Assembly (NCBI GenBank): GCA_043797265.1 | Contig: JAZDPV010000018.1 | Span: forward strand, 27,082 to 91,081 | Length of the DNA: 64,000 bases | Origin: an archaeon | GTDB lineage: Archaea; Nanobdellota; Nanobdellia; Pacearchaeales; GW2011-AR1 | Reading direction: 5' to 3' | Position numbers and translations under genes: made by a program | Part shown: positions 1 through 60,248 of the stretch, one piece after another | Layout: the number at the start of each line of letters is the position of its first letter | How positions within the stretch are numbered: position 1 is the first letter of the stretch | The notes under the pieces: model-generated | The model's input: the letters and a program-made list of their open reading frames with translations, nothing else | The model's database searches: none | What the model was told of the DNA's origin: nothing

Positions 1-62
1 CGCCGCCAGGAAAGAAAGTTGGGATGATTAGACCGAGAAGGACGGGGAGGAAGAAGAGATGA
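1..62 (+). CDS. rpl2: 50S ribosomal protein L2, C-terminal fragment (runs off window)
   Basis: Frame from nt 3 reads PPGKKVGMIRPRRTGRKKR*, the conserved uL2 C-terminus; lies upstream of S19. Confidence 0.9.
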   Translation, partial: PPGKKVGMIRPRRTGRKKR

Positions 63-169
63 AATCTTTGATTTCATCAGTTCGCTTCGCTGGAAGTTGG
101 AAGTTCGCTTCGCTGGAAGTGGGGCTTCGCCCGACCTGGATTATATTTGGCTTGGAGGGATTTAGCTAA
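59..169 (+). other. Bridging mini-ORF (36 aa) / hairpin-repeat insert between rpl2 and rps19
   Basis: ATG 59 overlaps L2 TGA; MKSLISSVRFAGSWKFASLEVGLRPTWIIFGLEGFS*; TAA ends 1 nt before S19 ATG; hairpin 58-78; 23-bp-period repeat. Confidence 0.6.
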
Positions 170-170
170 G

Positions 171-563
171 ATGGCGGAATTAATTAAGAGGAGCAAGGAT
201 AGGTTTTATCGAGGGAAGAAAGTCGCGGATTTGAAGGATGTTGATATTCGGGAATTTGCGAAATTGACGAAGGCGAGAGCGAGACGGGCGTTGTTGAGAA
301 ATTATGATATTGTCGAGGCGCTTGTGAAAAGATGGGAGAGATATAATGTGAAGAAGAAACCGATAAGGACGCATAATCGGGAAATTGTAATTGTGCCGAA
401 GATGATTGGATGGACTATTGGAGTTTATAATGGGAAGGAATTTTTGAAAGTTGTTATTAGTGAGGAGATGTTGGGGCATCGGCTGGGAGAGTTTGCGATG
501 ACGAGGAAGGTTGCTAAACATACAAGCATTGGAGCGAAGAAGGCGCCGAAGGAAAATGGATAA
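171..563 (+). CDS. rps19: 30S ribosomal protein S19
   Basis: IRTHNRE, VYNGKEF, MLGHRLGEFA motifs; ATG 171 after GGAGGG. Confidence 0.95.
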   Translation: MAELIKRSKDRFYRGKKVADLKDVDIREFAKLTKARARRALLRNYDIVEALVKRWERYNVKKKPIRTHNREIVIVPKMIGWTIGVYNGKEFLKVVISEEMLGHRLGEFAMTRKVAKHTSIGAKKAPKENG

Positions 564-1068
564 AGAAAAAACTGGCGAGATTGAAAAAGAAGTTGTTTCC
601 GAAGAGAAGAAAGAAGAGAAGAAAGATGTGAAGAAAGAAGTCGTGAGGGGGAAAGTTGTGAAGAAAAATATGGCATTCGCGAGAGGGGCTGGGTTGAATG
701 TTTCGCCGAAGCAATGTATTTGCATTTGCAAAGTTATTCGGGGGAAGAATCCGGATGTTGCTGTTGCGCGGCTGCAGGATGTTATCGACGGGAAAGGGGT
801 TATCCCGATGGCTGGGCTGGAAGTCGGGCATAGAAAAGGCAAGGGGCTGGCGGGCGGGAGATTTCCGAAAAATGCGTGCAATGCTGTTATAAATATTGTG
901 AAGCAGGTTGCGGCGAATGCTGTCGTTGCCGGAATTGAGAATCCGGTGATTGCTGTTGCCAAGGCTGATAGGGCATCGGCTCCGTTCAGGCGTGGAGGGC
1001 GAAGAGCGAAGAGATGTAATCTTTATTTAGAAGTGAGAGATAAAACTAAATTGGCGGGGAAGAAATAG
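556..1068 (+). CDS. rpl22: 50S ribosomal protein L22
   Basis: VSPKQ..ICKVIRGK, GRFPKNA motifs; operon position. Confidence 0.93.
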   Translation: MDKEKTGEIEKEVVSEEKKEEKKDVKKEVVRGKVVKKNMAFARGAGLNVSPKQCICICKVIRGKNPDVAVARLQDVIDGKGVIPMAGLEVGHRKGKGLAGGRFPKNACNAVINIVKQVAANAVVAGIENPVIAVAKADRASAPFRRGGRRAKRCNLYLEVRDKTKLAGKK

Positions 1069-1766
1069 TGGAAGAAAAAGCGTTTGTTGGAGTGCGAAGG
1101 GATGAGTATAATATTCGGGAATTTGTAAAGCGGATGTTTGGGATGGGGAAAGTTTCGCGAGTGAGGATTGAGTATACTCCGGTTGGCGAAAAGGTTGTCG
1201 TGGCGACGCATAGACCTGGTTGGATTATCGGGAAGGGCGGGGAAAAAATTAATGAGTTGACCGAAATTTTGAAGAAGCGGTTTAAGATGGAGAACCCGCA
1301 TGTTGATATCGAGGAGATTATGAAGCCCGAGTTTGATGCTCAACTGGTTGCCGACGACATTGCTTTGACGCTCGAGAGATTTGGGGCGCAAAAATATAAG
1401 GCGTCGAGTTATCGGGCTTTGGATAGAATTAAGAAAGCGGGGGCTTGGGGGGCTGAGTTGAGATTGTCAGGGAAACTGCCGAGCGACAGGGCGCGGAGTT
1501 GGAGATTCGCGTTTGGTTATTTGAAGAAAACTGGCGACGCTGCGAGTGTTGTTGATAGGGCTGAATCTGTTGCTGTTACAAAGCAGGGCGTTGTCGGGAT
1601 TAAGGTTGCGATTTTGGCTCCGGGGGTTAAGGTTTATGACCAGATTGTAATTGACGAGGATTTTATGAATCAGATTAAGAAAAACGCGACATTTGAGGAA
1701 GTTGAGGAGACGGTTAAGAAAAAGAAAAGAAGTGTGAAGAAAAAAATTAAGGAGGGTAGGAAATGA
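1068..1766 (+). CDS. rps3: 30S ribosomal protein S3
   Basis: KH domain RPGWIIGKGG; GAELRLSGKL; GVVGIKV. Confidence 0.95.
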   Translation: MEEKAFVGVRRDEYNIREFVKRMFGMGKVSRVRIEYTPVGEKVVVATHRPGWIIGKGGEKINELTEILKKRFKMENPHVDIEEIMKPEFDAQLVADDIALTLERFGAQKYKASSYRALDRIKKAGAWGAELRLSGKLPSDRARSWRFAFGYLKKTGDAASVVDRAESVAVTKQGVVGIKVAILAPGVKVYDQIVIDEDFMNQIKKNATFEEVEETVKKKKRSVKKKIKEGRK

Positions 1767-1957
1767 TGGCGGAGAAGAAAATGACGGTTAAGGAAATAGA
1801 TAAGAAGATTATGGACTTGAAGATTGAGTTGCTGCGGAATCCGACGAAAAAGGGAAAGATTAAAAGGGAAATTGCGCGGCTTCTTACCATGGGGAACCGA
1901 GAGAACAGAGAATTAAAAATGAAGACTTTAACTAAACTGGAGGATGCGAAGAAGTAA
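1763..1957 (+). CDS. rpl29: 50S ribosomal protein L29
   Basis: KIKREIARLLT motif; follows S3. Confidence 0.85.
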   Translation: MMAEKKMTVKEIDKKIMDLKIELLRNPTKKGKIKREIARLLTMGNRENRELKMKTLTKLEDAKK

Positions 1958-2256
1958 TGGATATTTGTCCGAAGTGTGGACTGCCTTTGGCGGCGTGTGT
2001 CTGCGGCGAGATTGCCAAGACGCAACAACAAATTGTTGTGAAGACCGAAAAAAGGCGTTTCGGAAAAGTTAATACGATTATAACCGGATTTGATAATGGC
2101 GTCGACGTTAAGGATCTCGCGAAGCGGCTCAAAATGAAGCGGGCTTGCGGTGGCACGACGAAAAACAATGTTATCGAATTACAGGGAAATCACAAAGGTC
2201 ACATTAAACCGATTTTGGTTGAAATAGGATTTAGTGAAAATCAGATTGACGATTAG
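1957..2256 (+). CDS. sui1: Translation initiation factor SUI1/aIF1
   Basis: CPKCGLP..CVC, RRFGK, ACGGT, IELQGNH. Confidence 0.93.
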   Translation: MDICPKCGLPLAACVCGEIAKTQQQIVVKTEKRRFGKVNTIITGFDNGVDVKDLAKRLKMKRACGGTTKNNVIELQGNHKGHIKPILVEIGFSENQIDD

Positions 2257-2285
2257 CGCGTTTGCGTGAGGTGATAGAGAATAGA

Positions 2286-2633
2286 ATGGCAGAGAAAAAG
2301 GTAAGGAAGAAAATAGAAATAAAGGTCGAATGTAAAGATAGACTTTGTCCTCGGCATGGGGATAGGAAGTTGAAATTGAGGGGGCGGGTTTTTGAGGGGG
2401 TTGTGATTAGAAAATTTCCGAGGAGAGTCACGATTGAGTTTGAGAGGATGTTGAAGTTGCCGAAGTACGAGAGATATGAGAAAAGGAAAACCAAGATTCA
2501 CGCGAGATTGCCGGATTGCATGAAGGATGAAGTTGCCGTTGGTGATTTGATTTTGATTGCGGAGACGCGACCAATTTCGAAGATGATTCATTTTGTTGTT
2601 TCGAAAGTTGTTCGGAAGGGGGCGGGGGAATGA
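2286..2633 (+). CDS. rps17: 30S ribosomal protein S17
   Basis: CPRHG, LRGRVFEGVV, KYERYEKR, ETRPISK; start may be GTG 2271. Confidence 0.95.
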   Translation: MAEKKVRKKIEIKVECKDRLCPRHGDRKLKLRGRVFEGVVIRKFPRRVTIEFERMLKLPKYERYEKRKTKIHARLPDCMKDEVAVGDLILIAETRPISKMIHFVVSKVVRKGAGE

Positions 2634-2707
2634 GATATGCTTTGATAGAAAAAGGGCTTCGCCAAATTTTATTTAATGTTTTGGAGGTAGAAAATGAAGG
2701 CGATTAG
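2630..2707 (+). other. Bridging mini-ORF (25 aa) after rps17
   Basis: ATGA overlap with S17 stop; MRYALIEKGLRQILFNVLEVENEGD*; stop overlaps ATG 2694; contains GGC-TTC-GCC hairpin. Confidence 0.55.
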
Positions 2708-2900
2708 TGCGCATCATGAGTATAAGGTGGGACTTAATTCTGGTAATTGGTATGGGGTTAGAGAGAGCGGGTTGCCGAGTGATAGAGAAGTTATTGGGGA
2801 TTTAGAGGATGATAATAGTGTTTTTGCCTGTGGTCTTTTTGGCATTGGTACATCTAAAATAAAAAAACCTAAAGCGAGGAATGAAAATGAAGGCGATTAG
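2694..2900 (+). CDS. 68-aa orphan ORF inserted at the rpl14 start, bounded by a 20-bp direct repeat
   Basis: GAAAATGAAGGCGATTAGTG at 2690-2709 and 2883-2902; GGAGGT RBS; begins MKAIS like L14. Confidence 0.6.
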   Translation: MKAISAHHEYKVGLNSGNWYGVRESGLPSDREVIGDLEDDNSVFACGLFGIGTSKIKKPKARNENEGD

Positions 2901-3288
2901 TGGGCGGGTGACGAGGGGGTTGAATATTGGGAGTTTGGTTGATGCGTGTGATAATAGCGGGGCGCGGATTGTAAAAATTGTGGCGGTGAAACACGGGAAG
3001 ACGTCGAAGGGACGGCAGGGTTATGCGAAGGTTGCGGATTGGGTGAAGGTTTCGGTGAGAAAGGGAGACCCGAAGATGAAGGGCGAGGTTTTTGATGCGG
3101 TGGTTGTTCGGCAGAGAAAATCGTGGCGAAGAAACACGGGCGAGAGAGTTTGCTTTTCGGATAATGCGGTTGCGTTGTTCAAGGACGAGAAGGGAAATCC
3201 GAAGGGGACGCAGATTAAGGGTGCGGTCGCGAGGGAAGTTCAGGAAAGATGGAAAGAAGTCGCTAAAATTGCGGGGAGTGTTTATTGA
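2887..3288 (+). CDS. rpl14: 50S ribosomal protein L14
   Basis: DNSGAR, AVVVRQRK, FSDNAVAL, KGTQIKGAVARE. Confidence 0.96.
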   Translation: MKAISGRVTRGLNIGSLVDACDNSGARIVKIVAVKHGKTSKGRQGYAKVADWVKVSVRKGDPKMKGEVFDAVVVRQRKSWRRNTGERVCFSDNAVALFKDEKGNPKGTQIKGAVAREVQERWKEVAKIAGSVY

Positions 3289-3431
3289 TGGGAAAATTAA
3301 AAATTTTCCCATGGGGATACGAGAAACTTTGTTTCTCGAGGGGATATGGCTTCGCCATGGAGATAGACGCTTCGCGTCGGGTGATTGCGCTTCGCGCGGG
3401 TGAATGGAGGAAAGATGAAGTCGAAATTTAA
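3288..3431 (+). other. Bridging mini-ORF (47 aa) with five triloop hairpins between rpl14 and rpl24
   Basis: TGATG overlap; open to TAA 3429-3431 inside L24 5' end; hairpins 3288-3312, 3320-3338, 3346-3358, 3366-3378, 3387-3397. Confidence 0.6.
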
Positions 3432-3936
3432 TAAATCGTGGAATGCGAGTGTGAAGCCAAGGAAACAGAGGAAGTTTTTGGTGAATGCGCCGAATCACAT
3501 TAGGCGAAAGTTGATGGGAGCGACGCTGGATAAGAGATTGAGGGCGAAGCATGGGGTGAGGAGTATTGAAGTTCGGAAGGGCGATGAGGTCAAGGTTATG
3601 AGAGGGAAGTTTGCGAAGAAGCAAGGGAAAGTTGGGGGGGTTGATGTTAAGAATTGCCGGATTCAGATTGATGGATTACAAAGAGAGAAAAAGGGTGGAG
3701 AGAAAGTTATGACGTGGTTCCATCCGTCGAGTGTGAAGATTGTTGTTTTGGATGATAGTGATAAAAGACGGTTTAAACGGAAAGGTTTGGAATCTGGGAA
3801 AGTAAAATTAAGAGAGGGGAAAAATGGCTCACGGATGAACACGGATGAGCACGGATTAAAGAATAAGGAAAATAGAAAAGTTGATAGAATCGTTAAGGGG
3901 AAAATAGATAAAATGGAAAAGGAGATTAAGAAATAA
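3415..3936 (+). CDS. rpl24: 50S ribosomal protein L24 with repeat-derived C-terminal extension
   Basis: [24 protein letters not shown]; extension of roughly 50 aa contains CACGGATGAR repeats. Confidence 0.93.
3830..3859 (+). repeat. 3 x 10-bp tandem repeat CACGGATGAA-like
   Basis: CACGGATGAA/CACGGATGAG/CACGGATTAA preceded by AATGGCT; second copy at 5166-5195. Confidence 0.8.
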
Positions 3937-4595
3937 TGGCGCATATAAAGAAAACTGAAATGCCGACGCTGTGGCCGATTTCGAGAAGAGGGAAGAGAAA
4001 GAGATTTATCGCTGTTCCTGCTCACGCGACTTCGAAGGGAATTAGTTTGTTGTTTTTACTTAGAGATGTTTTGAGAGTTGTTGAGACGAGGAAAGAAGCG
4101 AGATATATGACGCTGAATGGGATGGTCAAAGTTAATAATGTTGTTCGGAAGGATGAGAATTTTCCGGTTCAGGTGTTCGATGTGTTAGGGTTAGAGAAGG
4201 GTGGATTGAATTATAGATTAGAGATTGTTAATGGAAAGTTTAGGTTGAATGAAATATCCGAGAAAGAGGCTGGGGAAAAAATTGTGAAGATTTCCGGGAA
4301 AAAGGTTTTGGGCAAGGATAAGATTCAGATGAATTTGGATGATGGGCAGAATGTTTTGAGCGGGGAGAAATTTTCCGTCGGTGATTCGGTTTTGTTTAAT
4401 ACGAAAGAGAAAAAAGTTGTGAAAATTTTGCCGTTAAAGAAGGGGGCAAAAGTTGAAATTGTTTTGGGAAAGCACGCGGGGGACAAGGGCGAGTTGGTTG
4501 GGTTTGAAGATTTGGCCCGCGGGCGGAATTATGAAATTAAATTGGGGGACAAGATTGTGAGATTGCCTTACAAAACTATCTTGGTGATTGGATGA
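3936..4595 (+). CDS. rps4e: 30S ribosomal protein S4e
   Basis: HIKK..MP..WPISR, LLRDVL, FPVQVFDV, GKHAG. Confidence 0.95.
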   Translation: MAHIKKTEMPTLWPISRRGKRKRFIAVPAHATSKGISLLFLLRDVLRVVETRKEARYMTLNGMVKVNNVVRKDENFPVQVFDVLGLEKGGLNYRLEIVNGKFRLNEISEKEAGEKIVKISGKKVLGKDKIQMNLDDGQNVLSGEKFSVGDSVLFNTKEKKVVKILPLKKGAKVEIVLGKHAGDKGELVGFEDLARGRNYEIKLGDKIVRLPYKTILVIG

Positions 4596-4618
4596 TGGGG
4601 GTAGACGATAGATGGTAG
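4592..4618 (+). other. Bridging mini-ORF (8 aa) made of 7-bp repeats
   Basis: ATGA overlap with S4e stop; MMGVDDRW*; TAG overlaps L5 ATG 4612; TAGACGA-TAGATGG-TAGATGG units. Confidence 0.45.
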
Positions 4619-5154
4619 ATGGTAATAATGTGATGAGAGAAATAAAACTGGAGAAGGTTATTTTGAATATCGGGGGCGTCGAGGATAAATTGAATAGAGG
4701 GGCGATTTTGCTGGAGAAAATTTCGGGGAAGAAAGTGGTGAAGGTCAAGGCGACAAAGAGGATTCCGAGCTGGAATGTTCGGCCGGGACTTGAGGTTGGT
4801 GTCAAGGTTACGTTGAGGGGCGACGACGCGCTGGAGATGGTGAAGAAGTTGTTGCCGGCGATTGATAATATTTTGAAGGAGAAGCAGATTCAGGATAATT
4901 GTTTTTCGTTCGGGATTCATGAGTATATCGAGATTCCGGGAGCTGAGTATATTCGGGAAGTTGGGATTATGGGGTTCGAGGTGACGGTTGTTTTTAGCCG
5001 GGCGGGAAAGAGTGTCGAGCAGAAAAAAATTAAGCGAGGCAAGATGCGAAGGTCGGTTGTGACGAGGAAGGAAATTGAGGATTATGTTGTAGATAAATTT
5101 GGGACGGAAATTTTGCGGAAGGAAAAGAAGTTGGAGGGGGAAGATGAGGAATAG
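4612..5154 (+). CDS. rpl5: 50S ribosomal protein L5
   Basis: MREIKLEKVILNIG, GVKVTLRG, FSFGIHEYIEIPG. Confidence 0.96.
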   Translation: MVDGNNVMREIKLEKVILNIGGVEDKLNRGAILLEKISGKKVVKVKATKRIPSWNVRPGLEVGVKVTLRGDDALEMVKKLLPAIDNILKEKQIQDNCFSFGIHEYIEIPGAEYIREVGIMGFEVTVVFSRAGKSVEQKKIKRGKMRRSVVTRKEIEDYVVDKFGTEILRKEKKLEGEDEE

Positions 5155-5236
5155 AAATAATGGCTCACTAATGAACACGAATGAACACAGATTTAAATTA
5201 AATAGGGAAGTTGGGGGAGGATATGACGTCGAGTGA
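5144..5236 (+). other. Bridging mini-ORF (30 aa) with 10-bp repeats between rpl5 and rps14
   Basis: ATG 5144 after GGAGGGGG; MRNRNNGSLMNTNEHRFKLNREVGGGYDVE*; stop overlaps S14 start. Confidence 0.55.
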
Positions 5237-5453
5237 TTGGAGGAAGATAACGAAGCAGTTGAGGGGGAAGCCGGCGGTGTTGAAAAAGTTTTTGAAACAT
5301 AATAAACCGAAGGCGAGGAAATTTGGCGTCGCTGTTAATAAATGCGAGGTTTGCGGGCGGACCGGGGCTCATATATCAAGTTATAATCTAAATTTGTGCC
5401 GACATTGTTTCAGGGAATTGGCGGTTGAATTGGGGTTTAAGAAATACTCATGA
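5223..5453 (+). CDS. rps14: 30S ribosomal protein S14 (zinc-binding)
   Basis: CEVCGR...LNLCRHCFRE..GFKKY. Confidence 0.95.
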   Translation: MTSSDWRKITKQLRGKPAVLKKFLKHNKPKARKFGVAVNKCEVCGRTGAHISSYNLNLCRHCFRELAVELGFKKYS

Positions 5454-5503
5454 GAAGGAAAATAGATAATAGAAAATTGGAAATAGGAGGAAATTTCAGA
5501 TGA
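5450..5503 (+). other. Bridging mini-ORF (17 aa) with 7-bp repeats between rps14 and rps8
   Basis: ATGA overlaps at both ends; MRRKIDNRKLEIGGNFR*; AAATAGA/TAATAGA/AAATTGG/AAATAGG units. Confidence 0.6.
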
Positions 5504-5871
5504 GTCATGATGTTGTTGCGGACGGGTTGAATCAGATAATGAACGCGAAAGCGGTGGAGAAGGGTGAGGTTGTGATTAGACGGGGTTCGAAAGTTTTGGT
5601 TAAATTATTTAAGATGATGAAAGAGTTGGGGCATATTGATTATAAGATTGAGGACGGGGATATTATTGTCAGGATTTTGAAGTTAAATGAATGCCGGGCG
5701 GTGAAGCCGAGATATTTTGTCGGGGTTGATGGGATTGACAGGTACCTTAGGAGATTTTTGCCGTCGAGAAATTTCGGAACTTTAGTTATTTCTACGAACA
5801 AGGGATTGATAACGCACAAGGAAGCTTTGAAATTAAATATTGGGGGAAGCGTTGTTGCTTATTTTTACTGA
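5500..5871 (+). CDS. rps8: 30S ribosomal protein S8
   Basis: DVVADGL..IMNA, AVKPRY, LVISTNKGL.TH, GGSVVAYFY. Confidence 0.95.
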   Translation: MSHDVVADGLNQIMNAKAVEKGEVVIRRGSKVLVKLFKMMKELGHIDYKIEDGDIIVRILKLNECRAVKPRYFVGVDGIDRYLRRFLPSRNFGTLVISTNKGLITHKEALKLNIGGSVVAYFY

Positions 5872-6452
5872 TGAATAAAGATTTGATGAGAGAGATTGAA
5901 ATTCCGACGGGGGTTGAAGTTTGTGTTAACGGGAATGAGGTTGTTGTGAGAGGGAGCGGAAAGGAGTTGAGAAAAAGTTTTGATAAAGGGAAGGTTGTGA
6001 TTGAAGTCAAGGACGGGAAAATTGTTTTGAGTGTTTCGGGGGCGAGTCGTCGGGAATCGAAGATGATTGGAACGATTTGGGCGCATTTGAAAAATATGAT
6101 TAAGGGAGTTGGCGAAAATTTTGTTTATGAGCTGGAGATTTGCAATATTCATTTTCCGATGAACGTTTCCGTTGTTGAAACAACGGAAAAGGGTACAGGC
6201 ATCAGGAATCAGAATTCAGGCAAGGTTGTGATTAAAAGTTTTTTGGGGAGAGTGAAGGAGAGAGTTGCGCGGATTATGCCGGGGGTGAGTGTTGAAGTGA
6301 AAGGGAATAAGATTGTCGTTAGTTCAGGAGACATTGAGGCGGCAGGACAGACCGCGGCGAATTTAGAGAAAGCGACGAGGCTGGTTGGTCGGGATAGGAG
6401 AGTTTTTCAGGATGGAATTTACATAACTAAAAAACCTTATAGGAATATTTAA
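5871..6452 (+). CDS. rpl6: 50S ribosomal protein L6
   Basis: HFPMNV, FLG, AGQTAANLE, DRRVFQDGIYI. Confidence 0.96.
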   Translation: MNKDLMREIEIPTGVEVCVNGNEVVVRGSGKELRKSFDKGKVVIEVKDGKIVLSVSGASRRESKMIGTIWAHLKNMIKGVGENFVYELEICNIHFPMNVSVVETTEKGTGIRNQNSGKVVIKSFLGRVKERVARIMPGVSVEVKGNKIVVSSGDIEAAGQTAANLEKATRLVGRDRRVFQDGIYITKKPYRNI

Positions 6453-6453
6453 G

Positions 6454-6804
6454 ATGGAAAGAAAGAAGCCGAAATTTTTGAGGAAGGACTGGCACAAGGA
6501 AATTAAACTCGGGAGGACGGTGAAGAAATTGCGGAAGTGGCGGGCGGCGAAGGGGAGACATAACAAGATTAGATTGAGTAGGAGAGGACAGTCGCGGAGG
6601 CCGAAGATTGGATGGTCATTAGGGGGCAGTAGGAAGGGAGTTGGTGGTAAGTATGTTTTGAATTTGAAGGATTTATCGTCGGTAAAAAAAGGTGAGGGAA
6701 TTTTGATTGGGGCCGTTGGGGGGAAGAAGAGAAAGGAAATTGTTGCGAAGGCGAATGATATGGCTGTTAAGATTTTGAATAAATATAAGGTGGTGAAAAA
6801 ATGA
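6454..6804 (+). CDS. rpl32e: 50S ribosomal protein L32e
   Basis: KPKFLR, KWR..KG.HNKIR, VGGKKR. Confidence 0.92.
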   Translation: MERKKPKFLRKDWHKEIKLGRTVKKLRKWRAAKGRHNKIRLSRRGQSRRPKIGWSLGGSRKGVGGKYVLNLKDLSSVKKGEGILIGAVGGKKRKEIVAKANDMAVKILNKYKVVKK

Positions 6805-7205
6805 ATTTGGCTAAGCGAAAAGAGTTGGCGGCGAAAGTTTTTGGGGTCGGGAAAGGCCGGATTATTTTTGTGAAAGATAATTTACCTGAAATTAAAGAGG
6901 CGATTACGCGGATGGATATTATTGATTTGCATAAATCGGGAGCAATTAAAATTAGAGAGATTAGGGGACGGAAGAAAATTGTGAGAAGGCGACATAGAAG
7001 AAGAGTTGGAAAAGTTAAAGGGAAGGTTAGTGATAAGAAGGCGGAGTATGTGATAATCACGAGGAAGTTGCGGAAGTTTGTGAGAGGATTGGTGAGGGCG
7101 GGAAAAATTAAGAGAGAGAGAAGCGGGGAAATTCGGAAAGAGATTCGAGCGCGGAAGTTCAAGAGCAAAAGACATCTTAAAGAAATTTTGGAGGAAGGGG
7201 AATGA
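6801..7205 (+). CDS. rpl19e: 50S ribosomal protein L19e
   Basis: LAAKVFGVGKGRI, IKEAITR.DI, FKSKRHL. Confidence 0.93.
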   Translation: MNLAKRKELAAKVFGVGKGRIIFVKDNLPEIKEAITRMDIIDLHKSGAIKIREIRGRKKIVRRRHRRRVGKVKGKVSDKKAEYVIITRKLRKFVRGLVRAGKIKRERSGEIRKEIRARKFKSKRHLKEILEEGE

Positions 7206-7279
7206 AAGTTTTGGCGGGGCTTTGCCCGAGGTTGTTTGGCGGCGGAAGGAATTTAAATGATGGTTTGAGGGGATTGTGA
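7202..7279 (+). other. Bridging mini-ORF (25 aa) between rpl19e and rpl18
   Basis: ATGA at 5' end, TGATG at 3' end; MKVLAGLCPRLFGGGRNLNDGLRGL*; GGGC-TTT-GCCC hairpin. Confidence 0.6.
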
Positions 7280-7776
7280 TGGCAGGATTAAGGACGATGA
7301 AGCGAAGGAGAAAGGAAGGGCGGACGGATTACAAGTTGAGACTGGGGCTGTTGAAGAGCGGGTTGCCGAGGATTGTGATTAGAAGGACGAACAAATATTT
7401 TATCGTGCAGGCGGTCGAGAGTGTTGAGGCACAGGACGGGGTTGTCGCGACTATTAGTTCGAAGGAGTTGTTGAAATATGATTGGGATGAGAAGAAGGGC
7501 GGGAGTTTGAAATCTATTCCGGCTGGATACCTCACGGGTTTTTTATTCGCCAAGAAACTGAAAAATAAAAACAAGTATATTGTTGATTTAGGGATGGCCC
7601 GGACCGAGAAAGGATGCAGGGTGTTTGCCGTCGTCAAGGGGTTGATTGATGGTGGCGTGAACATTGATGTTGATGAAAAAGTTTTTCCGTCTGGGGAAAG
7701 ATTGGCGGGTGAGCATTTGGAAGACGGGATTAAAGAAATGATTGTAAAAGTTCGGGAGAAATTGAGGAATGGCTAA
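7279..7776 (+). CDS. rpl18: 50S ribosomal protein L18
   Basis: RRRKEGRTDY..RL.LLKS..PR.VIRRTNK; GEHL. Confidence 0.95.
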   Translation: MAGLRTMKRRRKEGRTDYKLRLGLLKSGLPRIVIRRTNKYFIVQAVESVEAQDGVVATISSKELLKYDWDEKKGGSLKSIPAGYLTGFLFAKKLKNKNKYIVDLGMARTEKGCRVFAVVKGLIDGGVNIDVDEKVFPSGERLAGEHLEDGIKEMIVKVREKLRNG

Positions 7777-8605
7777 GAAAAAAGTTGCGGGGGATGCAGA
7801 CGTCAAGGAGCAGTTGGAGGAGATGGTTGATGTGGTGGACGCCAAGGAGAAAGTGGAAGAGGAAAAGGTGTCGAAGGAATTTGACGAGAAGGCGAAGGTC
7901 GAGGAGAGGAGTGAATTTAAACGGGAGACGAAAGAGGAAAGATTTGCGAGAGAAGATTACGAGAAGTTGGAGAGATGGATACCGAGGACTGAGTTGGGGC
8001 GCAAGGTCAGGGCGGGGAAAATCAAGGATATTGACGAGATTTTGAAGGATGGGAAAAAAATTATGGAGTCGGAGATTGTTGATTTGCTGGTTCGTGGTTT
8101 GAAGGTGGACACTTTGTTTATCGGGCAGGCGAAGGGAAAGTTTGGCGGAGGGAAGAGACGGGCGTTCAGGCAGACGCAGAAGAAAACGAAGGAAGGAAAT
8201 GTTTTGACTTTTGGAGTGATGGCTGTTGTTGGCGATGAGCATGGGCACGTTGGGCTTGGTTATGGGCGAGCGTCTGAGACATTGCCGGCGAAGGAAAAAG
8301 CGATTAGGAAAGCGAAATTGAGTATTGTGAAAATTCCGAGGGGGTGTGCGAGTTATAATTGTTCGTGTGATGGGGAACATAGTATCCCCTTGGCCGTCGA
8401 GGGGAAATGCTCTTCAGTGGTTATTAAGTTGATGCCAGCGCCTCAGGGAACGGGGTTGGTTGTTGGGGACGAGATGAAAAAGATTTTGAGGATGGTCGGG
8501 ATAAAGGATGTCTATAGCCAGACCGAGGGAAAAATCAGGACGACGTTTAATGCGGCGAAAGCGTTGATGGTTGCGTTGAATAAATTGAATGAGGTGAGAA
8601 TATGA
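7769..8605 (+). CDS. rps5: 30S ribosomal protein S5
   Basis: WIPRTELGR, VVGDEHGHVGLG, PAPQGTGLV. Confidence 0.96.
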   Translation: MAKKKVAGDADVKEQLEEMVDVVDAKEKVEEEKVSKEFDEKAKVEERSEFKRETKEERFAREDYEKLERWIPRTELGRKVRAGKIKDIDEILKDGKKIMESEIVDLLVRGLKVDTLFIGQAKGKFGGGKRRAFRQTQKKTKEGNVLTFGVMAVVGDEHGHVGLGYGRASETLPAKEKAIRKAKLSIVKIPRGCASYNCSCDGEHSIPLAVEGKCSSVVIKLMPAPQGTGLVVGDEMKKILRMVGIKDVYSQTEGKIRTTFNAAKALMVALNKLNEVRI

Positions 8606-8679
8606 AAATCGTAGATTTTCATGGTGATAATCGTTTTGCGATTGGATGTATGACTTTGTCATGGGTGGTTGTGAGATGA
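8602..8679 (+). other. Bridging mini-ORF (25 aa) with three triloop hairpins between rps5 and rpl30
   Basis: ATGA overlaps at both ends; MKIVDFHGDNRFAIGCMTLSWVVVR*; ATGAAAATC-GTA-GATTTTCAT. Confidence 0.62.
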
Positions 8680-9017
8680 TATTGGTCGTGAGGATTGCGG
8701 GGCAGGCGAGGAAGAAGGCGAAGGATAGTGAGACCTTGAGGCGGTTGAGGTTGGGAAAGAAGTTTAGTTGTATTCTTGTCGACGAGAAAGATGATGTGAG
8801 GATAGGGATGGTGCGAGCGGTGGGATACATGGTTGCTTACGGGAAAGTTGAGGACGATTTTGTGAAAGAGTTGAAGAAGATGCGGAAAGACAAGGATGGG
8901 GTTTATTTTTTGCATCCGCCTCGAGGTGGGTTTAAGAAGAGTTCGAAAGTTGCGACGCCGAAGGGAATCCTTGGGAAAAATGAAGATATCACTAAATTAG
9001 TGGAGAGGATGTTATGA
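8676..9017 (+). CDS. rpl30: 50S ribosomal protein L30
   Basis: VVRIAG, TLRRLRL, LHPPRGGF, LVERML. Confidence 0.93.
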   Translation: MILVVRIAGQARKKAKDSETLRRLRLGKKFSCILVDEKDDVRIGMVRAVGYMVAYGKVEDDFVKELKKMRKDKDGVYFLHPPRGGFKKSSKVATPKGILGKNEDITKLVERML

Positions 9018-9118
9018 AAAAATCGGGGATTTTTTCGGGCGTTAGGTTGCTTCGCTTGTGGGTGTTGGGTCACTTCGCTTGTGGGAACTTGAGTAACATT
9101 GCGGGAGTATTAAGATGA
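9014..9118 (+). other. Bridging mini-ORF (34 aa) between rpl30 and rpl15
   Basis: ATGA overlaps at both ends; hairpin GAAAAAATC-GGG-GATTTTTTC; CTTCGCTTGTGGG twice with 23-bp period. Confidence 0.62.
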
Positions 9119-9564
9119 GAGTTCATAAGAGGAAGAAGTCATCGAGAATTCGTGGGGGAAAAACTTGCGGGTGGGGATTTAGGCAGAAGCACAAGGGGCA
9201 TGGGAATAAAGGTGGGACTGGAATGGCTGGGAGCGGGAAGAGGGCGGACCATAAAAAACAATCTGCGTTGATGTCTGATGAGAAAGGGCAGTATTTTGGG
9301 AAGCAGGGGGCGACGTCGCGAGGAACAAAAAAGAAAAAATATGAAAAAATTAATTTGTGCGATATTCGGGCTAACTTTGATGGGAATAAGATTGATTTGA
9401 GTAAGCATAAGATTCTTGGGAAGGGCGAAGGGTTTAAGGCGGAAATTTTGGCGAAGAGCGCGAGTGTGAGCGCGATTGAAAAGATGGAGAAGGCGGGTGG
9501 TCGAATTCTTATTGTGAATTCGAAGAAATCAGGTGTCAGAAATCAGGTGTCAGAGGAAAATTAA
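9115..9564 (+). CDS. rpl15: 50S ribosomal protein L15
   Basis: RGGKTCGWG...GGTGMAG, KILGKG, AIEKMEKAGG. Confidence 0.95.
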   Translation: MRVHKRKKSSRIRGGKTCGWGFRQKHKGHGNKGGTGMAGSGKRADHKKQSALMSDEKGQYFGKQGATSRGTKKKKYEKINLCDIRANFDGNKIDLSKHKILGKGEGFKAEILAKSASVSAIEKMEKAGGRILIVNSKKSGVRNQVSEEN

Positions 9565-9611
9565 AGTTAATTCTACAAAACTTTATAAAAGAATTTTATG
9601 TTCATTAAATC

Positions 9612-10988
9612 ATGGGCTTAAAATGGTTATTGCATAATTTGCCTGAGGTTCGGGCGCCGACGGAGAAGAAGGTTAGTTTTAATGTTAAATTGAAATGGAC
9701 ACTGGTTATTTTGGTTGGGTTTTTTGTTCTTTGCAATATTCCGTTGTTTGGCATTACAGAGAGTGCGTTGTCGCGGTTTGAGTATTTGGCGATTTTGTTG
9801 GGAACGGATTTTGGTTCGATTATTTCGCTGGGTATTGGGCCTATCGTCATGGCTTCGATTATTTTGCAATTGTTGAATGGAGCGGGGATTTTGAATATTG
9901 ATACGAATACCGACGAGGGCAAGAAGTTTTTTCAGGGGGTGCAGAAATTGCTGGTTTTTGCGTTTGTGATTTTTGAGTCGATGGTTTATGTTTTGATGAG
10001 AGGGATTGCGGCCGAACCGGGTTTTGCGGGGCTTGTTATTTTTCAATTGATTATCGGGGGGCTCTTGATTGTTTTTATGGACGAGGTTGTGCAGAAGTGG
10101 GGCTTTGGTTCGGGGGTTAGTTTGTTTATTGCGGCCGGGATTGGGTGGAGATTGTTTGCTCAGTTGTTCCAGTTTATCGGGCCGACTGGGGCGTTTGAGG
10201 CGACTGGTAAAGTTTTAGCGATTGTTGCCGCGATTATTTCTGGAGGGGCTGGGACGGGGACTGAGGTTTTGAGAAATTTATTTCCGATTATTGCTACTGC
10301 TGTTTTGTTTTTGGCGGTTGTGTTTGCGCAGAGTTTGAAGGTCGAGATTCCGCTGGCGTTTGACAGGATTCGCGGGCATTCGGTAAAGTGGCCGCTGCAA
10401 TTTTTTTATGCGGGGGTTATTCCGGTGATTTTGGTTTCGGCTTTGGTTGCTAATTTGCAGTTGTTTGCGTCGCTGTTGCAGAATTGGCTGGGGCACGCGA
10501 CTTTCCTCGGTGGATTTAGTTCGGGCGGGCAGGCAATTTCGGGTTTGTCTTTTTGGGTTCACTCTACTCCTATTTTGGAGACAATTATCACCGGGAGTTT
10601 TAGATGGATTTATGCCGGGCAGGCGGTGGTTCATATTTTGTTTTATACTTTGTTTTCGATTGTGTTTTCTTTCTTTTGGGTCGGGACTTCAGGGATGGAC
10701 GCGAGGAGTCAGGCGAACAAGATTGTTCATTCTGGGATGAGCATGCCGGGGTTTAGGAAGGACGAGAGAGTTTTGGAATCGATTTTGAAAAGGTATGTGA
10801 CGCCGTTGACAGTGATGGGTGGTGCGGCGATTGGGCTTTTGGCATCGGTGGCGAACTTGCTTGGGGCGTTAGTTGGCGGGACGGCGATTCTTTTGGCGAT
10901 TATGATTTTGTATCAGTTGTATCAGAACATCGCGCAGCAGCATGCGGTCGACATGAATCCGGCGCTCAAGGGTTTCTTTGGTGCTTGA
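9612..10988 (+). CDS. secY: Preprotein translocase SecY
   Basis: LGIGPIVMASIILQLL, KWGFGSGVSLFIAAG, PGFR; about 10 TM segments. Confidence 0.97.
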   Translation: MGLKWLLHNLPEVRAPTEKKVSFNVKLKWTLVILVGFFVLCNIPLFGITESALSRFEYLAILLGTDFGSIISLGIGPIVMASIILQLLNGAGILNIDTNTDEGKKFFQGVQKLLVFAFVIFESMVYVLMRGIAAEPGFAGLVIFQLIIGGLLIVFMDEVVQKWGFGSGVSLFIAAGIGWRLFAQLFQFIGPTGAFEATGKVLAIVAAIISGGAGTGTEVLRNLFPIIATAVLFLAVVFAQSLKVEIPLAFDRIRGHSVKWPLQFFYAGVIPVILVSALVANLQLFASLLQNWLGHATFLGGFSSGGQAISGLSFWVHSTPILETIITGSFRWIYAGQAVVHILFYTLFSIVFSFFWVGTSGMDARSQANKIVHSGMSMPGFRKDERVLESILKRYVTPLTVMGGAAIGLLASVANLLGALVGGTAILLAIMILYQLYQNIAQQHAVDMNPALKGFFGA

Positions 10989-10991
10989 GCG

Positions 10992-11026
10992 CAGTTGGTA
11001 GTGAGTAGTTTTTAGTTGGTAGTGTT
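10992..11026 (+). repeat. 5 x degenerate 7-bp repeat (YAGTNNN)
   Basis: CAGTTGG TAGTGAG TAGTTTT TAGTTGG TAGTGTT. Confidence 0.7.
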
Positions 11027-11108
11027 TAAAGATAAGGCAACTTTGTTGCCGATTTTTTTGACTTGGCTACTTGGATGAATTTATATATTTTGATTTGTTT
11101 TATTTTTT

Positions 11109-46804: not shown

Positions 46805-48021
46805 TGAATCTTGATTATTTGATTCTTGCATTGAAGAATTTGAAGCATCGGGGGATTCGGTCGTGGCTGACTTTGCTCGGGATTTTTATTGGAGTGACGG
46901 CGGTTGTTTCTTTAATGAGTCTGGGGGCCGGGTTACAGGCGGCGGTTGGGGCTCAGTTTGGTATTAGTTCGACGCAAGCATTAACTATTCAGGCTGGGGG
47001 GTTGAATTCTTTTGGTCCTCCTGGGAGCGGGGCTGTGAATCCATTGACGAGAGAGGATGCGATGGCTATAGAAAAATTAAGCGCTGTAGAATTTGCGACG
47101 CCGAGAAATATTGAGACGATTAAAATAGAATTTAATGACAAGATTGTTATTGGGAATGCTTTAAGTGTTGACGATAATAGGGAGCAAGAAATGTATGAGA
47201 CTATGGGTTTAGAAGCGGCGCAGGGGAGAATGCTTCAATCGGGAGATTTGGGGAAAGTGATTATTGGAAGCAGCCTCGCTGATGGTGGGAAAAATGGATT
47301 TGATGAAGATATTGTCCCGGGTAAAACTATTTTAGTTCAGGATGAAAAATTTAAGGTGATAGGTATTCTTAAAAAAATGGGGAGTTTTACTATTGATGGA
47401 ATTGTTTTCATGTATGATGATGATTTGAATGGCTTGATGAATTATGGCGACGAGGTTGATATTATTGGCGTGAAGGTGAAAGATAAAGATTTGATGGACA
47501 AGGCGGTTGAAGAAATTAGTAAGTTGTTGAGGGAGAGGCGTGATGTTAAAGTTGGCGAGGAGGATTTTGAAATATCCACACCGGAATCGATGTTGGAAAC
47601 TGTGAATAGTATTCTTGGCGGGGTTCAAGCTTTTATTATTATTATAGCGTCGATTTCGATTTTGGTCGGGGTGATCGGAATTGTTAATACGATGACGACT
47701 TCGGTTTTGGAGAGGCGGAAAGAAATTGGAATTATGAAAGCGATTGGCGCAAGAAATAGCCAGGTGTTTATGCAATTTTTTTTTGAGTCGGGAATGCTTG
47801 GGTTAATAGGAGGATTGGTTGGTGTTGTTTTGGGGACGTTGGTCGGAGTCGTTGGGGTTATGAGTATTAATAGTTTTCTTGGAGCGGAACTTTCTCCGAT
47901 GATTGATTTTGTATTGATAGGCGGAGCGTTGGCTGGAAGTTTTGTGATTGGTGCCGTTGCTGGAATTGTGCCCGCGATGAATGCTGCTAAACAAAATCCG
48001 GTGGAGGCGCTGAGGGGATGA
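46804..48021 (+). CDS. MacB/FtsX-like ABC permease
   Basis: RSWLTLLGIFIG, SVLERRKEIGIMKAIGA, PVEALR. Confidence 0.93.
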   Translation: MNLDYLILALKNLKHRGIRSWLTLLGIFIGVTAVVSLMSLGAGLQAAVGAQFGISSTQALTIQAGGLNSFGPPGSGAVNPLTREDAMAIEKLSAVEFATPRNIETIKIEFNDKIVIGNALSVDDNREQEMYETMGLEAAQGRMLQSGDLGKVIIGSSLADGGKNGFDEDIVPGKTILVQDEKFKVIGILKKMGSFTIDGIVFMYDDDLNGLMNYGDEVDIIGVKVKDKDLMDKAVEEISKLLRERRDVKVGEEDFEISTPESMLETVNSILGGVQAFIIIIASISILVGVIGIVNTMTTSVLERRKEIGIMKAIGARNSQVFMQFFFESGMLGLIGGLVGVVLGTLVGVVGVMSINSFLGAELSPMIDFVLIGGALAGSFVIGAVAGIVPAMNAAKQNPVEALRG

Positions 48022-48131
48022 AATCTTTGATTTTATCCTCAAGGGTATTGGGGCGCTTTGCTTGTTGGTATTGGGGCGCTTTGCTTGTTGGTGATTTAAG
48101 TAACTTGAGGATACTGAAAAATGGTGATTAG
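48018..48131 (+). other. Bridging mini-ORF (37 aa) between the two permeases
   Basis: ATGA overlap; MKSLILSSRVLGRFACWYWGALLVGDLSNLRILKNGD*; stop overlaps ATG 48121; 2 x 23-bp tandem 48044-48089. Confidence 0.6.
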
Positions 48132-52927: not shown

Positions 52928-53300
52928 GGAGAATGTTGGGATATTGAGTATTTATGCGAGTTTTAATAATACAATTGCGACGATGACAGATTTGGCGGGG
53001 AACACGATTGGGCGGGTTTCCGGCGGACAGATTACGAAGCATGATAGAATGAGGGCAAACCCGACGATTGCGATGTTTATTGCGAAAAGGATACAGGATG
53101 TTTGTCGAGATTATAAGATTAAGGATTTGTATGTGAGGATGAAGGGGCAGACGGGAGCGAGCGGGATTGGGCCGGGGGCGCATGCGATTGTTAAGACATT
53201 AACAAAAGAAGGATTTAGGATTTTGAGTATTACTGAGACGACTGCTGTTCCTCGTGGCGGGCCGAAGAAGAAGGGCGGGAGAAGAGGGAGGCGAGTTTAA
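52914..53300 (+). CDS. rps11: 30S ribosomal protein S11
   Basis: IYASFNNT..TDL.G, GPGA, GGRRGRRV. Confidence 0.96.
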   Translation: MAKSEENVGILSIYASFNNTIATMTDLAGNTIGRVSGGQITKHDRMRANPTIAMFIAKRIQDVCRDYKIKDLYVRMKGQTGASGIGPGAHAIVKTLTKEGFRILSITETTAVPRGGPKKKGGRRGRRV

Positions 53301-53410
53301 TGAAATCAAAGATTTTATTATGGTGGTCTGCATTTGGTCTTCGGTGGCTGGAGATAAATAACAAGTATAAATTTATAAATTGGGAAATGGATGGAACGAT
53401 ATGGAAATGA
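53300..53410 (+). other. Bridging mini-ORF (36 aa) between rps11 and rpoD
   Basis: TAATG overlap; MKSKILLWWSAFGLRWLEINNKYKFINWEMDGTIWK*; TGA overlaps ATG 53407; hairpin AATGAAATC-AAA-GATTTTATT. Confidence 0.6.
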
Positions 53411-59779: not shown

Positions 59780-59825
59780 TATGGGAAATTTATGGAGAAT
59801 TAATAATTTTGATTTTAAATTGAGA

Positions 59826-60248
59826 AGAAATCTACATCCTTGAAGATGTAGTCTTCCTGATAAGTATTTATTTCTAAACACTTTGTTTTTTATATCGATA
59901 TAAAATGTTTTGGGAGCCAGAGAACGCAAAACTTCTTAAAGCTTGCACTCGACGTTCAGCGACGAGAAACGAAATAAAAATAATCGAATTGAATGTTCAG
60001 CCCGAGCATGTTCATTGTATTGTTCTTATAAAATTCAGTGTTTCAGTGTCGAGAATTTTACAGATTTTAAAGAGCGGTTCTTCGAAATTGTTTTTTGAGC
60101 ACAAAAAAATAAGACTTCAATATCCTCGAGGGCATTTGTGGAGCAGGAGGAAATTTGCGAGTTCTGTTGGATTTGTGCAACTTGACGTCGTGAAGGACTA
60201 TGTTAGAAATCAGTAGGAAACTCCACGCTTTAGTGTGGAGAGTATGTC
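59826..60248 (+). mobile_element. tnpA: IS200/IS605-family remnant with 5'-truncated tnpA (59905-60216)
   Basis: YRYKMF, PEHVH (HUH), LW, VKDYVRNQ; hairpins CTACATC-CTTGAA-GATGTAG (59832-59851) and CTCCACGC-TTTA-GTGTGGAG (60221-60240); ends approximate. Confidence 0.8.

Follow-up and report, generated by a model that had tools for sequence, protein, structure and literature searches.

How does an operon whose genes follow one another almost without gaps cope with DNA that lands between them? This question is raised by the ribosomal-protein operon of an archaeon of the order Pacearchaeales (genome G000, GenBank assembly GCA_043797265.1), which occupies bases 1-10988 of the stretch analyzed here, 64,000 nucleotides (nt) of contig JAZDPV010000018.1 that we refer to as the window. 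Many of its genes are separated by spacers that are spanned by short open reading frames (ORFs), each beginning at or near the stop codon of one gene and ending at or near the start codon of the next. These spacers are inserted DNA, they contain mobile elements, and they hold open, in-phase frames far more often than expected by chance, both in G000 and in its genus. We infer that the frames are translated and that the relaying of ribosomes is their selected function. A relay by termination-reinitiation, preserved by selection at inserts in a tightly coupled operon, is the best reading of these comparisons, and we assign it a probability of roughly 0.6.

The operon comprises the genes for L2, S19, L22, S3, L29, SUI1, S17, L14, L24, S4e, L5, S14, S8, L6, L32e, L19e, L18, S5, L30, L15 and secY, in this order. 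Pfam searches confirmed the identity of 17 of the 19 products tested; L22 and L29, for which no Pfam match was obtained at E <= 1e-5, owe their names to gene order. The coding strand is strongly G-rich and C-poor, with a GC skew of about 0.5 over the first 10 kb (0.4-0.56 over the operon). In G000 (625 kb in 18 contigs), genes were called with a codon-usage model of our own, which yielded 715 genes covering 68% of the sequence and recovered the operon. The genus comprises 49 genomes, and the operon was fetched from 46 relatives, in which genes were placed by tblastn with the G000 proteins and starts were set by homology to these. All genomes are metagenome assemblies, and in one relative a run of N lies beside a junction.

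The operon was compared with these relatives, a check that the sequence-only reading of the window had proposed. Where G000 has 46-253 nt between two genes, the genes of most of the 46 same-genus loci abut at -4, -1 or +1 nt, and the C- and N-termini of the flanking proteins are conserved right up to the junction. The spacers must therefore be insertions, and their placement at the stop/start junction, as had been claimed, is supported. Other genomes of the genus carry insertions of their own at other junctions. The further idea that an insert takes over the original ATG does not always hold: many of the elements supply an ATGA or TAAAATG themselves, and TGA serves as the upstream stop codon at eight of ten spacer-bearing junctions compared with three of nine abutting ones. 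Homologous spacers change in length without losing the frame in nine of 12 cases. The S5-L30 spacer, for example, measures 70, 88, 94 and 97 nt in G000 and its three closest relatives and is in phase in all of them. The S14-S8 spacer has 46 nt in both G000 and the relative G057 and, despite internal rearrangement, is still open, while its peptide is not conserved. Among the bridging peptides as a whole, 63 of 85 are singletons.

Whether such frames could arise by chance was assessed at three levels. In the window, the coupled frame of a spacer stays open with a probability of 0.23-0.51 in dinucleotide-preserving shuffles, which gives a joint probability of 10^-3.7 for eight spacers; taken for the window alone, this is moderate evidence, as it is post hoc and based on loose criteria. 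The genome-wide count against shuffles that had also been suggested was carried out on 368 same-strand spacers of 25-350 nt in G000. An ATG lies at -3 to +3 of the end of the upstream stop codon in 68 of them, and 28 of these 68 are bridged, compared with 12.4 expected (standard deviation 2.8; z 5.6). The third level was provided by the relatives, with 148 gaps of at least 25 nt. Two of these contain N and 51 were set aside, as their coupled ATG is in frame with the downstream gene and therefore points to an N-terminal extension or to a start called too far downstream, so that 95 gaps were scored. With a single ORF as the requirement, 77 of the 82 spacers with an ATG at -3 to +4 of the stop are bridged: all 12 at 25-60 nt (5.5 expected), all 26 at 61-150 nt (7.4 expected, standard deviation 2.2) and 39 of 44 at 151-700 nt (0.1 expected). 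The five failures, like the S17-L14 spacer of the window, turned out to consist of two or three ORFs in a chain, with coupling from one to the following. When chains were admitted, with a restart ATG at -20 to +6 of the previous stop and the last ORF ending at -17 to +20 of the next start, 10 of 11 spacers of the G000 operon (including L23-L2 just upstream of the window) are bridged compared with 3.4 expected from shuffles, and 87 of 95 in the relatives, among them 31 of 33 at 61-150 nt where 7.3 were expected. The coupling windows used for scoring are tolerant throughout.

A control that uses real sequences and compares the three frames of a spacer with each other leads in the same direction. 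Exactly one frame is open in 33 of 49 spacers of 40-150 nt, and none in a single spacer; in 32 of the 33, the open frame is the one that starts from the stop-coupled ATG. Furthermore, 24 of 28 spacers of the ATGA..ATGA type are in phase. The proposal that inserted DNA persists only if it relays the ribosome is compatible with these comparative statistics.

The relay reading starts from what is known of coupling. In Haloferax volcanii and Escherichia coli, a stop-start distance of about 20 nt is described as almost abolishing termination-reinitiation in reporter constructs (PMC10666635). The genus packs its operon at -4, -1 and +1 nt, so that inserted DNA would break the coupling of the downstream ribosomal gene if ribosomes were not carried across it. 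In the scenario we favor, short mosaics of sense-oriented repeats, and in relatives also orphan ORFs, would recently have been inserted exactly at stop/start junctions. An insert would be kept as one open frame, or as a chain of two or three, that opens at the upstream stop or a few nt from it (ATGA, TRATG, TAAnATG) and closes at the next start. A ribosome that ends the upstream gene would reinitiate at the coupled AUG, translate the insert and melt its hairpins on the way, terminate on the AUG of the next gene, often beside a Shine-Dalgarno-like motif, and reinitiate there. In this manner, the relay would restore a coupling otherwise lost across spacers of roughly 20 nt and longer. A Shine-Dalgarno-like motif precedes 70% of the starts after relay spacers and 59% of those at abutting junctions, compared with 19% of random positions and 3% of secY starts; such motifs seem to accompany coupling rather than replace it.

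Several observations weigh against this reading. The very presence of a Shine-Dalgarno-like motif in 70% of the relay spacers makes independent initiation at the downstream gene possible. The SUI1-S17 spacer of the window, which had been overlooked in the sequence-only reading, contains no relay ORF. In the relatives, eight of the 95 spacers have no relay even when chains are allowed, and three of the 12 length changes among homologous spacers break the frame. Across G000, 40 of the 68 same-strand spacers with a stop-coupled ATG are unbridged, and outside the operon most are. At four loci from other families of the order none of 13 spacers is bridged, so that the rule would be specific to the genus. 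The counts ignore that the relatives are kin and that some spacers are common to several of them, and they therefore overstate the number of independent events; the gene starts in the relatives rest, moreover, on homology to the G000 proteins. RNA sequencing runs were searched for the stretch covered by the window and none contained it.

In the window itself, all ten mini-ORFs that had been listed from the sequence were found at exactly the same coordinates (Table 1). The accompanying statement that each starts at an ATG overlapping the upstream stop applies to eight of them (seven ATGA, at 59, 2630, 4592, 5450, 7202, 8602 and 9014, and one TGATG, at 3288) but not to those at 2694 and 5144. 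Relative to the next start, their ends range from -15 to +19 nt, and eight of the ten overlap the neighboring stop or start, or lie a few nt from it, at both ends. ATGA at both ends was confirmed for three spacers (S14-S8, S5-L30 and L30-L15), as was the absence of the pattern from spacers with a TATA-like box of their own, i.e., L15-secY and the one between secY and the next gene. In five spacers a single frame out of three is open, namely the coupled one, and in two spacers a second frame comes close to being open. The portrayal of the spacers as hairpins and tandem repeats is correct in part: a strong 5' hairpin including the relic AUG is predicted in four of the eight spacers that were folded, but folding-energy z-scores are significant only for L14-L24 (-2.4) and S5-L30 (-4.1). 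The predicted fold of the latter combines a 5' hairpin on the AUG with a second helix that would sequester the L30 start. The second ORF of the S17-L14 chain begins with a copy of the L14 start, duplicated as a 20-nt direct repeat (2690 and 2883), and terminates within the L14 start region, at +19 or +13 relative to the ATG at 2881 or 2887. It has coding-like codon usage and a homologue, 37% identical, at the same junction in the relative G048; it does not have a Pfam match, and no confident fold was predicted (predicted local distance difference test score, pLDDT, 44.8).

Table 1. Spacers, bridging ORFs and repeat modules in the window (aa, amino acids; ends are given relative to the next start codon)
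Feature	Position	Strand	Remarks
Bridging ORF L2-S19, 36 aa	59..169	+	ATGA on L2 stop; ends 2 nt before S19 ATG
Hairpin and repeats of ORF L2-S19	59..169	+	5' hairpin ATGAAATC-TTT-GATTTCAT, then two 23-nt GTTCGCTTCGCTGGAAGT repeats
SUI1-S17 spacer, 29 nt	2257..2285	+	Shine-Dalgarno-like GAGGTGAT; conserved in the three closest relatives
S17-L14, first ORF of chain, 25 aa	2630..2707	+	ATGA on S17 stop; overlaps ATG 2694 by 14 nt (end +13)
S17-L14, second ORF of chain, 68-aa orphan	2694..2900	+	starts 61 nt after S17 stop, inside the end of 2630-2707
Bridging ORF L14-L24, 47 aa	3288..3431	+	TGATG start; ends +16
L14-L24 spacer			5' hairpin and hairpin array with TTC/TTT loops; two of three linkers are GGGGATA
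CACGGA tandem module in C-terminal tail of L24	3820..3860	+	read in frame; module and frame as in L5-S14 spacer
Bridging ORF S4e-L5, 8 aa	4592..4618	+	ATGATG on S4e stop; ends 6 nt past in-frame L5 ATG 4612, or 15 nt before ATG 4633
Bridging ORF L5-S14, 30 aa	5144..5236	+	ATG begins 8 nt before L5 stop codon; ends +13; sole open frame of its spacer
CACGGA-type module in L5-S14 spacer	5156-5196		
Bridging ORF S14-S8, 17 aa	5450..5503	+	ATGA at both ends; ends +3
In-frame 13-aa insertion in L6 relative to seven relatives	6174..6226 (approximate bounds)	+	DNA of NNTCAGG-type short repeats
Bridging ORF L19e-L18, 25 aa	7202..7279	+	ATGA start; stop TGA overlaps L18 ATG (TGATG), end 0
Bridging ORF S5-L30, 25 aa	8602..8679	+	ATGA at both ends; ends +3
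Bridging ORF L30-L15, 34 aa	9014..9118	+	ATGA at both ends; ends +3; 97-nt element
L15-secY spacer	9565..9611	+	TATA-like TTTATAAA; without coupled ATG or Shine-Dalgarno motif
Bridging ORF, 37 aa, in 99-nt spacer	48018..48131	+	build as in L30-L15: ATGA hairpin, two GGGGCGCTTTGCTTGTTGG units, TAAGTAACTTGAGG stretch; no alignment to the L30-L15 element found
Bridging ORF, 36 aa, in 100-nt spacer	53300..53410	+	TAATG start; hairpin ATGAAATC..GATTTTAT

The short inserts are mosaics of dispersed, sense-oriented modules of four kinds: hairpins in which the coupled ATG itself is part of the 5' arm (e.g., ATGAAAATC-GTA-GATTTTCAT); hairpin arrays in which the stem varies and the loop is C-TTY-G (e.g., CTTCG), some of them joined by GGGGATA-type linkers; 10-nt tandem repeats of the CACGGA type, after which a T run, GGAGG and the start codon usually come; and NNTCAGG repeats. 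There are 177 hairpins of the second kind, 48 of them within called genes, compared with 15-38 hairpins with control loops; the intergenic ones are oriented 99 sense to 20 antisense. All 16 copies of the CACGGA module are in sense orientation. Hairpins that begin with ATG, on the other hand, are not more common than those that begin with control trinucleotides. The same modules are read in frame inside L4, L6 and L24. The sequence-only reading had postulated a family of small insertion elements, and this is supported by the recurrence of the modules on at least eight contigs of G000 and at different junctions of different genomes: a similarity cluster of 15 members spans six junctions in ten genomes. 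The 97-nt L30-L15 element of G000 is homologous to the L30-L15 spacer of the same length in G057 and to the S5-L30 spacer of G054, and a 44-nt stretch of it matches with 84% identity within the 473-nt S5-L30 spacer of G035. In G034, copies at L19e-L18 and L22-S3 share 98.9% identity across 90 nt, and both have TAA as their left and TAATG as their right boundary. These similarities show that the short inserts are mobile. Tandem arrays of whole elements were not encountered; the elements are single, and it is their internal modules of 10-23 nt alone that are repeated in tandem.

Two candidate explanations for the origin of the inserts were rejected. A Y1 (IS200/RAYT-like) transposase is not a convincing mobilizer, given one truncated copy, unrelated flanking hairpins and no relation to insert load across the genus. 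The family is found in 12 of the 49 genomes and is absent from the insert-rich G012, G015, G036, G041, G054 and G057; TnpB, searched for alongside Y1, was not found. The sole G000 copy, an ORF at 59905-60216 of the window, lacks the first 24 profile positions. Its flanks (59820-60240) contain the hairpins CTACATC..GATGTAG and CTCCAC..GTGGAG; it is situated within an AT-rich stretch and adjoins an ORF with an HNH-like motif, as judged by eye. Simple tandem duplication across the junction does not serve as a general origin either: duplicated starts exist, but most mini-ORFs are unlike the neighboring termini.

In the relatives, the same junctions also hold 45 longer inserted ORFs of 54-138 aa, all of them tightly coupled and arranged in series. 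According to BLASTP, they are unrelated to one another and singletons, except for a family of about 100 aa at L30-L15 in four genomes. The 45 ORFs gave one weak TPR match in Pfam and no match in PHROGs. The L30-L15 family has invariant residues, and one of five structure models, rich in beta strands, reaches a pLDDT of 86.7; a fold search with this model returned no PDB match at E <= 0.001. One member of the family has two near-identical homologues among 5.8 billion proteins. An orphan of 138 aa has no homologue in the 48 other genomes of the genus and no look-alike in the Atlas. Four loci (L028 in G012, L032 in G015, L056 in G032 and L061 in G036) stand out in that three to nine junctions per operon each bear an orphan ORF of 54-112 aa without a family match.

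Four other explanations have to be weighed against the relay. That the pattern is simply a product of the G-rich, C-poor and stop-poor composition of the spacers is extremely unlikely: shuffled spacers do stay open at appreciable rates and a second frame is almost open in two window spacers, but the joint probability in the window, the excess of bridged spacers in the relatives, the frame control and the phase of the ATGA..ATGA spacers all speak against it. Another position is that the elements are selfish DNA without relay function that is built to be compatible with ORFs, being readable in one frame and thereby tolerated anywhere including inside genes, the coupling at the ends being a by-product of the duplication of an ATGA or TAA target and the downstream gene using its own Shine-Dalgarno site. 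The occurrence of the modules in frame inside L4, L6 and L24 is in line with this view, as are the CACGGA module, which has one open frame by construction, the duplicated start regions (the 20-nt repeat at 2690/2883 and relic N-termini of L30 and L6 in relatives), the 98.9% identical copies flanked by TAA...TAATG, and the Shine-Dalgarno-like motifs in most relay spacers. A mechanism that acts at insertion would, however, leave unexplained that modules are later gained and lost with preservation of the frame, that unrelated inserts at one junction are all in phase, that chains of two or three coupled ORFs exist, and that the single open frame is almost always the stop-coupled one (32/33). We consider this explanation unlikely.

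Translation of the spacers might also be selected in order to cover the mRNA with ribosomes and not to deliver them, either preventing premature transcription termination or cleavage or opening up hairpins in which the next start is masked. It counts for this alternative that archaeal termination factors target untranslated RNA; the frames run over the whole length of the spacers, the predicted S5-L30 fold hides the L30 start in a helix, and many downstream starts have a Shine-Dalgarno motif of their own. Covering alone would not require the ORFs to end precisely on the next start (+3, 0, -2 nt), and we regard it as distinctly unlikely, with the reservation that sequence cannot separate covering from relay. 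That the ORFs are genuine members of the operon, coding for functional small proteins or micropeptides, appears very unlikely. This possibility can draw on the L30-L15 family with its invariant residues and its one good model, on the L30-L15 peptides of G000 and G057, which by our own count differ by seven synonymous and six non-synonymous codon changes, and on the 68-aa ORF with its coding-like codon usage and its homologue in G048. That ORF, however, is not confidently folded, the short peptides are translations of hairpin and tandem-repeat DNA, most bridging peptides are singletons, the S14-S8 peptide is not conserved, and neither the family searches with the 45 long ORFs (one weak match) nor the search with the 138-aa orphan lend it weight. 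The hidden set of micropeptides that the sequence-only reading had envisaged has accordingly found no support, as the short peptides show no sign of being functional.

Some further observations concern the surroundings of these junctions. Immediately upstream of the window, the 138-nt L23-L2 spacer (G000 C18:26306-26444) accommodates a candidate relay ORF of 45 aa that is made up of the same hairpin array as 3288-3414 of the window, and the C-terminus of L4 just upstream of this spacer contains the CACGGA module in frame. The S17-L14 region of G048 (L042/L043) shows the S17 C-terminus (HFVVSGVVKKMEGKE) and an L14-like start (MRA..) twice each around a run of N, which is either a duplication spanning the junction or an assembly problem. 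At the L22-S3 junction of L037, from another family (G022), a gene for a 179-aa HD-domain protein has been inserted, with ATGA on the L22 stop and its end 21 nt before S3. The L18 genes in L044 (G057) and L045 (G054) contain lineage-specific in-frame insertions relative to G000, about ten residues and several tens, respectively, as estimated by eye from unaligned sequences; in-frame insertions in ribosomal proteins seem to be common in this clade. Downstream of secY (10989-11108), a hairpin GGCAAC-TTT-GTTGCC followed by a T run resembles a terminator, and a TATA-like box then precedes the next gene. Over the window (1-64000), GC content swings from 0.46 to 0.26, e.g., at 18-28 kb, 40-42 kb and 58-64 kb, a hint at islands that differ in origin. 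Contigs of one DNA sequencing run, possibly from the source sample, match some spacers exactly (e.g., 7158-7318).

The sequence-only reading knew of no description of such an element family and micropeptide set. The underlying principle has in fact been described for mycobacterial interspersed repetitive units (MIRUs): a review covers short ORFs that 'deliver' ribosomes as well as MIRUs coupled at -4 (PMC12548453). As cited there, MIRUs are short dispersed repeats between co-directional genes of operons, with an ORF coupled to the neighboring gene at -4 nt, by which the insertion is proposed to leave expression largely unaffected (Supply et al. 1997, via PMC12548453). The archaeal relay pattern is therefore not without precedent. 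MIRUs are the closest one, and a literature search, the scope of which excluded supplementary files, yielded no archaeal or DPANN equivalent. The likeness, as judged from descriptions, extends to the dispersal of a short repeat over several loci (here the contigs of G000 and the 15-member cluster), to the location between co-directional operon genes and to ORF ends that overlap the stop and start of the flanking genes. Apart from the host, an archaeon in place of mycobacteria, there are differences in architecture. A MIRU is one unit of 40-100 bp that occurs in tandem arrays, while the archaeal elements are mosaics of hairpin modules and 10-23-nt repeats without whole-unit arrays; copies of them also lie in frame within genes, and others are coupled in series to orphan ORFs as long as 138 aa. 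Their dyad symmetry is strong, a property that MIRUs are not known to have.

Other known systems share single traits. Pairs of genes coupled by termination-reinitiation (Huber et al. 2019, 2023) exhibit the ATGA/TGATG overlaps seen here at both ends of the mini-ORFs and the -4, -1 and +1 junctions seen throughout the genus; those studies deal with pairs of real genes that lose their coupling with distance and do not report a relay, whereas here a non-conserved filler ORF lies between the coupled genes. The REP and BIME elements of enterobacteria are gene-oriented mosaic arrays of short hairpins in transcribed intercistronic regions, which the archaeal elements may resemble in form, but REPs are extragenic, untranslated and linked to RAYT transposases, whereas the archaeal elements are kept as ORFs and gave no support for a link to Y1. 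Rickettsia palindromic elements are palindromic repeats that are tolerated in frame inside protein genes. By this description, they resemble the archaeal modules in L4, L6 and L24; they are known for insertion within genes and not for bridging stop/start junctions as here.

These comparisons and their replication are evidence that the genome evolution of an uncultured archaeal lineage is constrained by termination-reinitiation coupling, with nearly all extra DNA in its most conserved operon apparently staying inside one continuous chain of translation. The principle known from MIRUs would thereby be extended from mycobacteria to Archaea with unrelated, hairpin-rich elements, and dozens of unannotated, presumably translated frames are flagged together with orphan genes. 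It is a tentative idea, and one we would not yet rely on, that the ribosomal superoperon of this DPANN genus obeys a rule of 'no untranslated gap', under which DNA landing between genes is read as a relay frame at the rates of ribosomal proteins, and that the operon thus acts as a nursery for de novo proteins. If this were true, the repeat-built frames of 8-64 aa would be a first stage and the orphan ORFs of 54-138 aa later stages, and one of the latter would already be a conserved family, for which one of five predictions gave a confident model. As a natural system, the operon may in any case be used to ask over what distance a ribosome can be relayed, and whether the forced translation of inserts seeds new genes.

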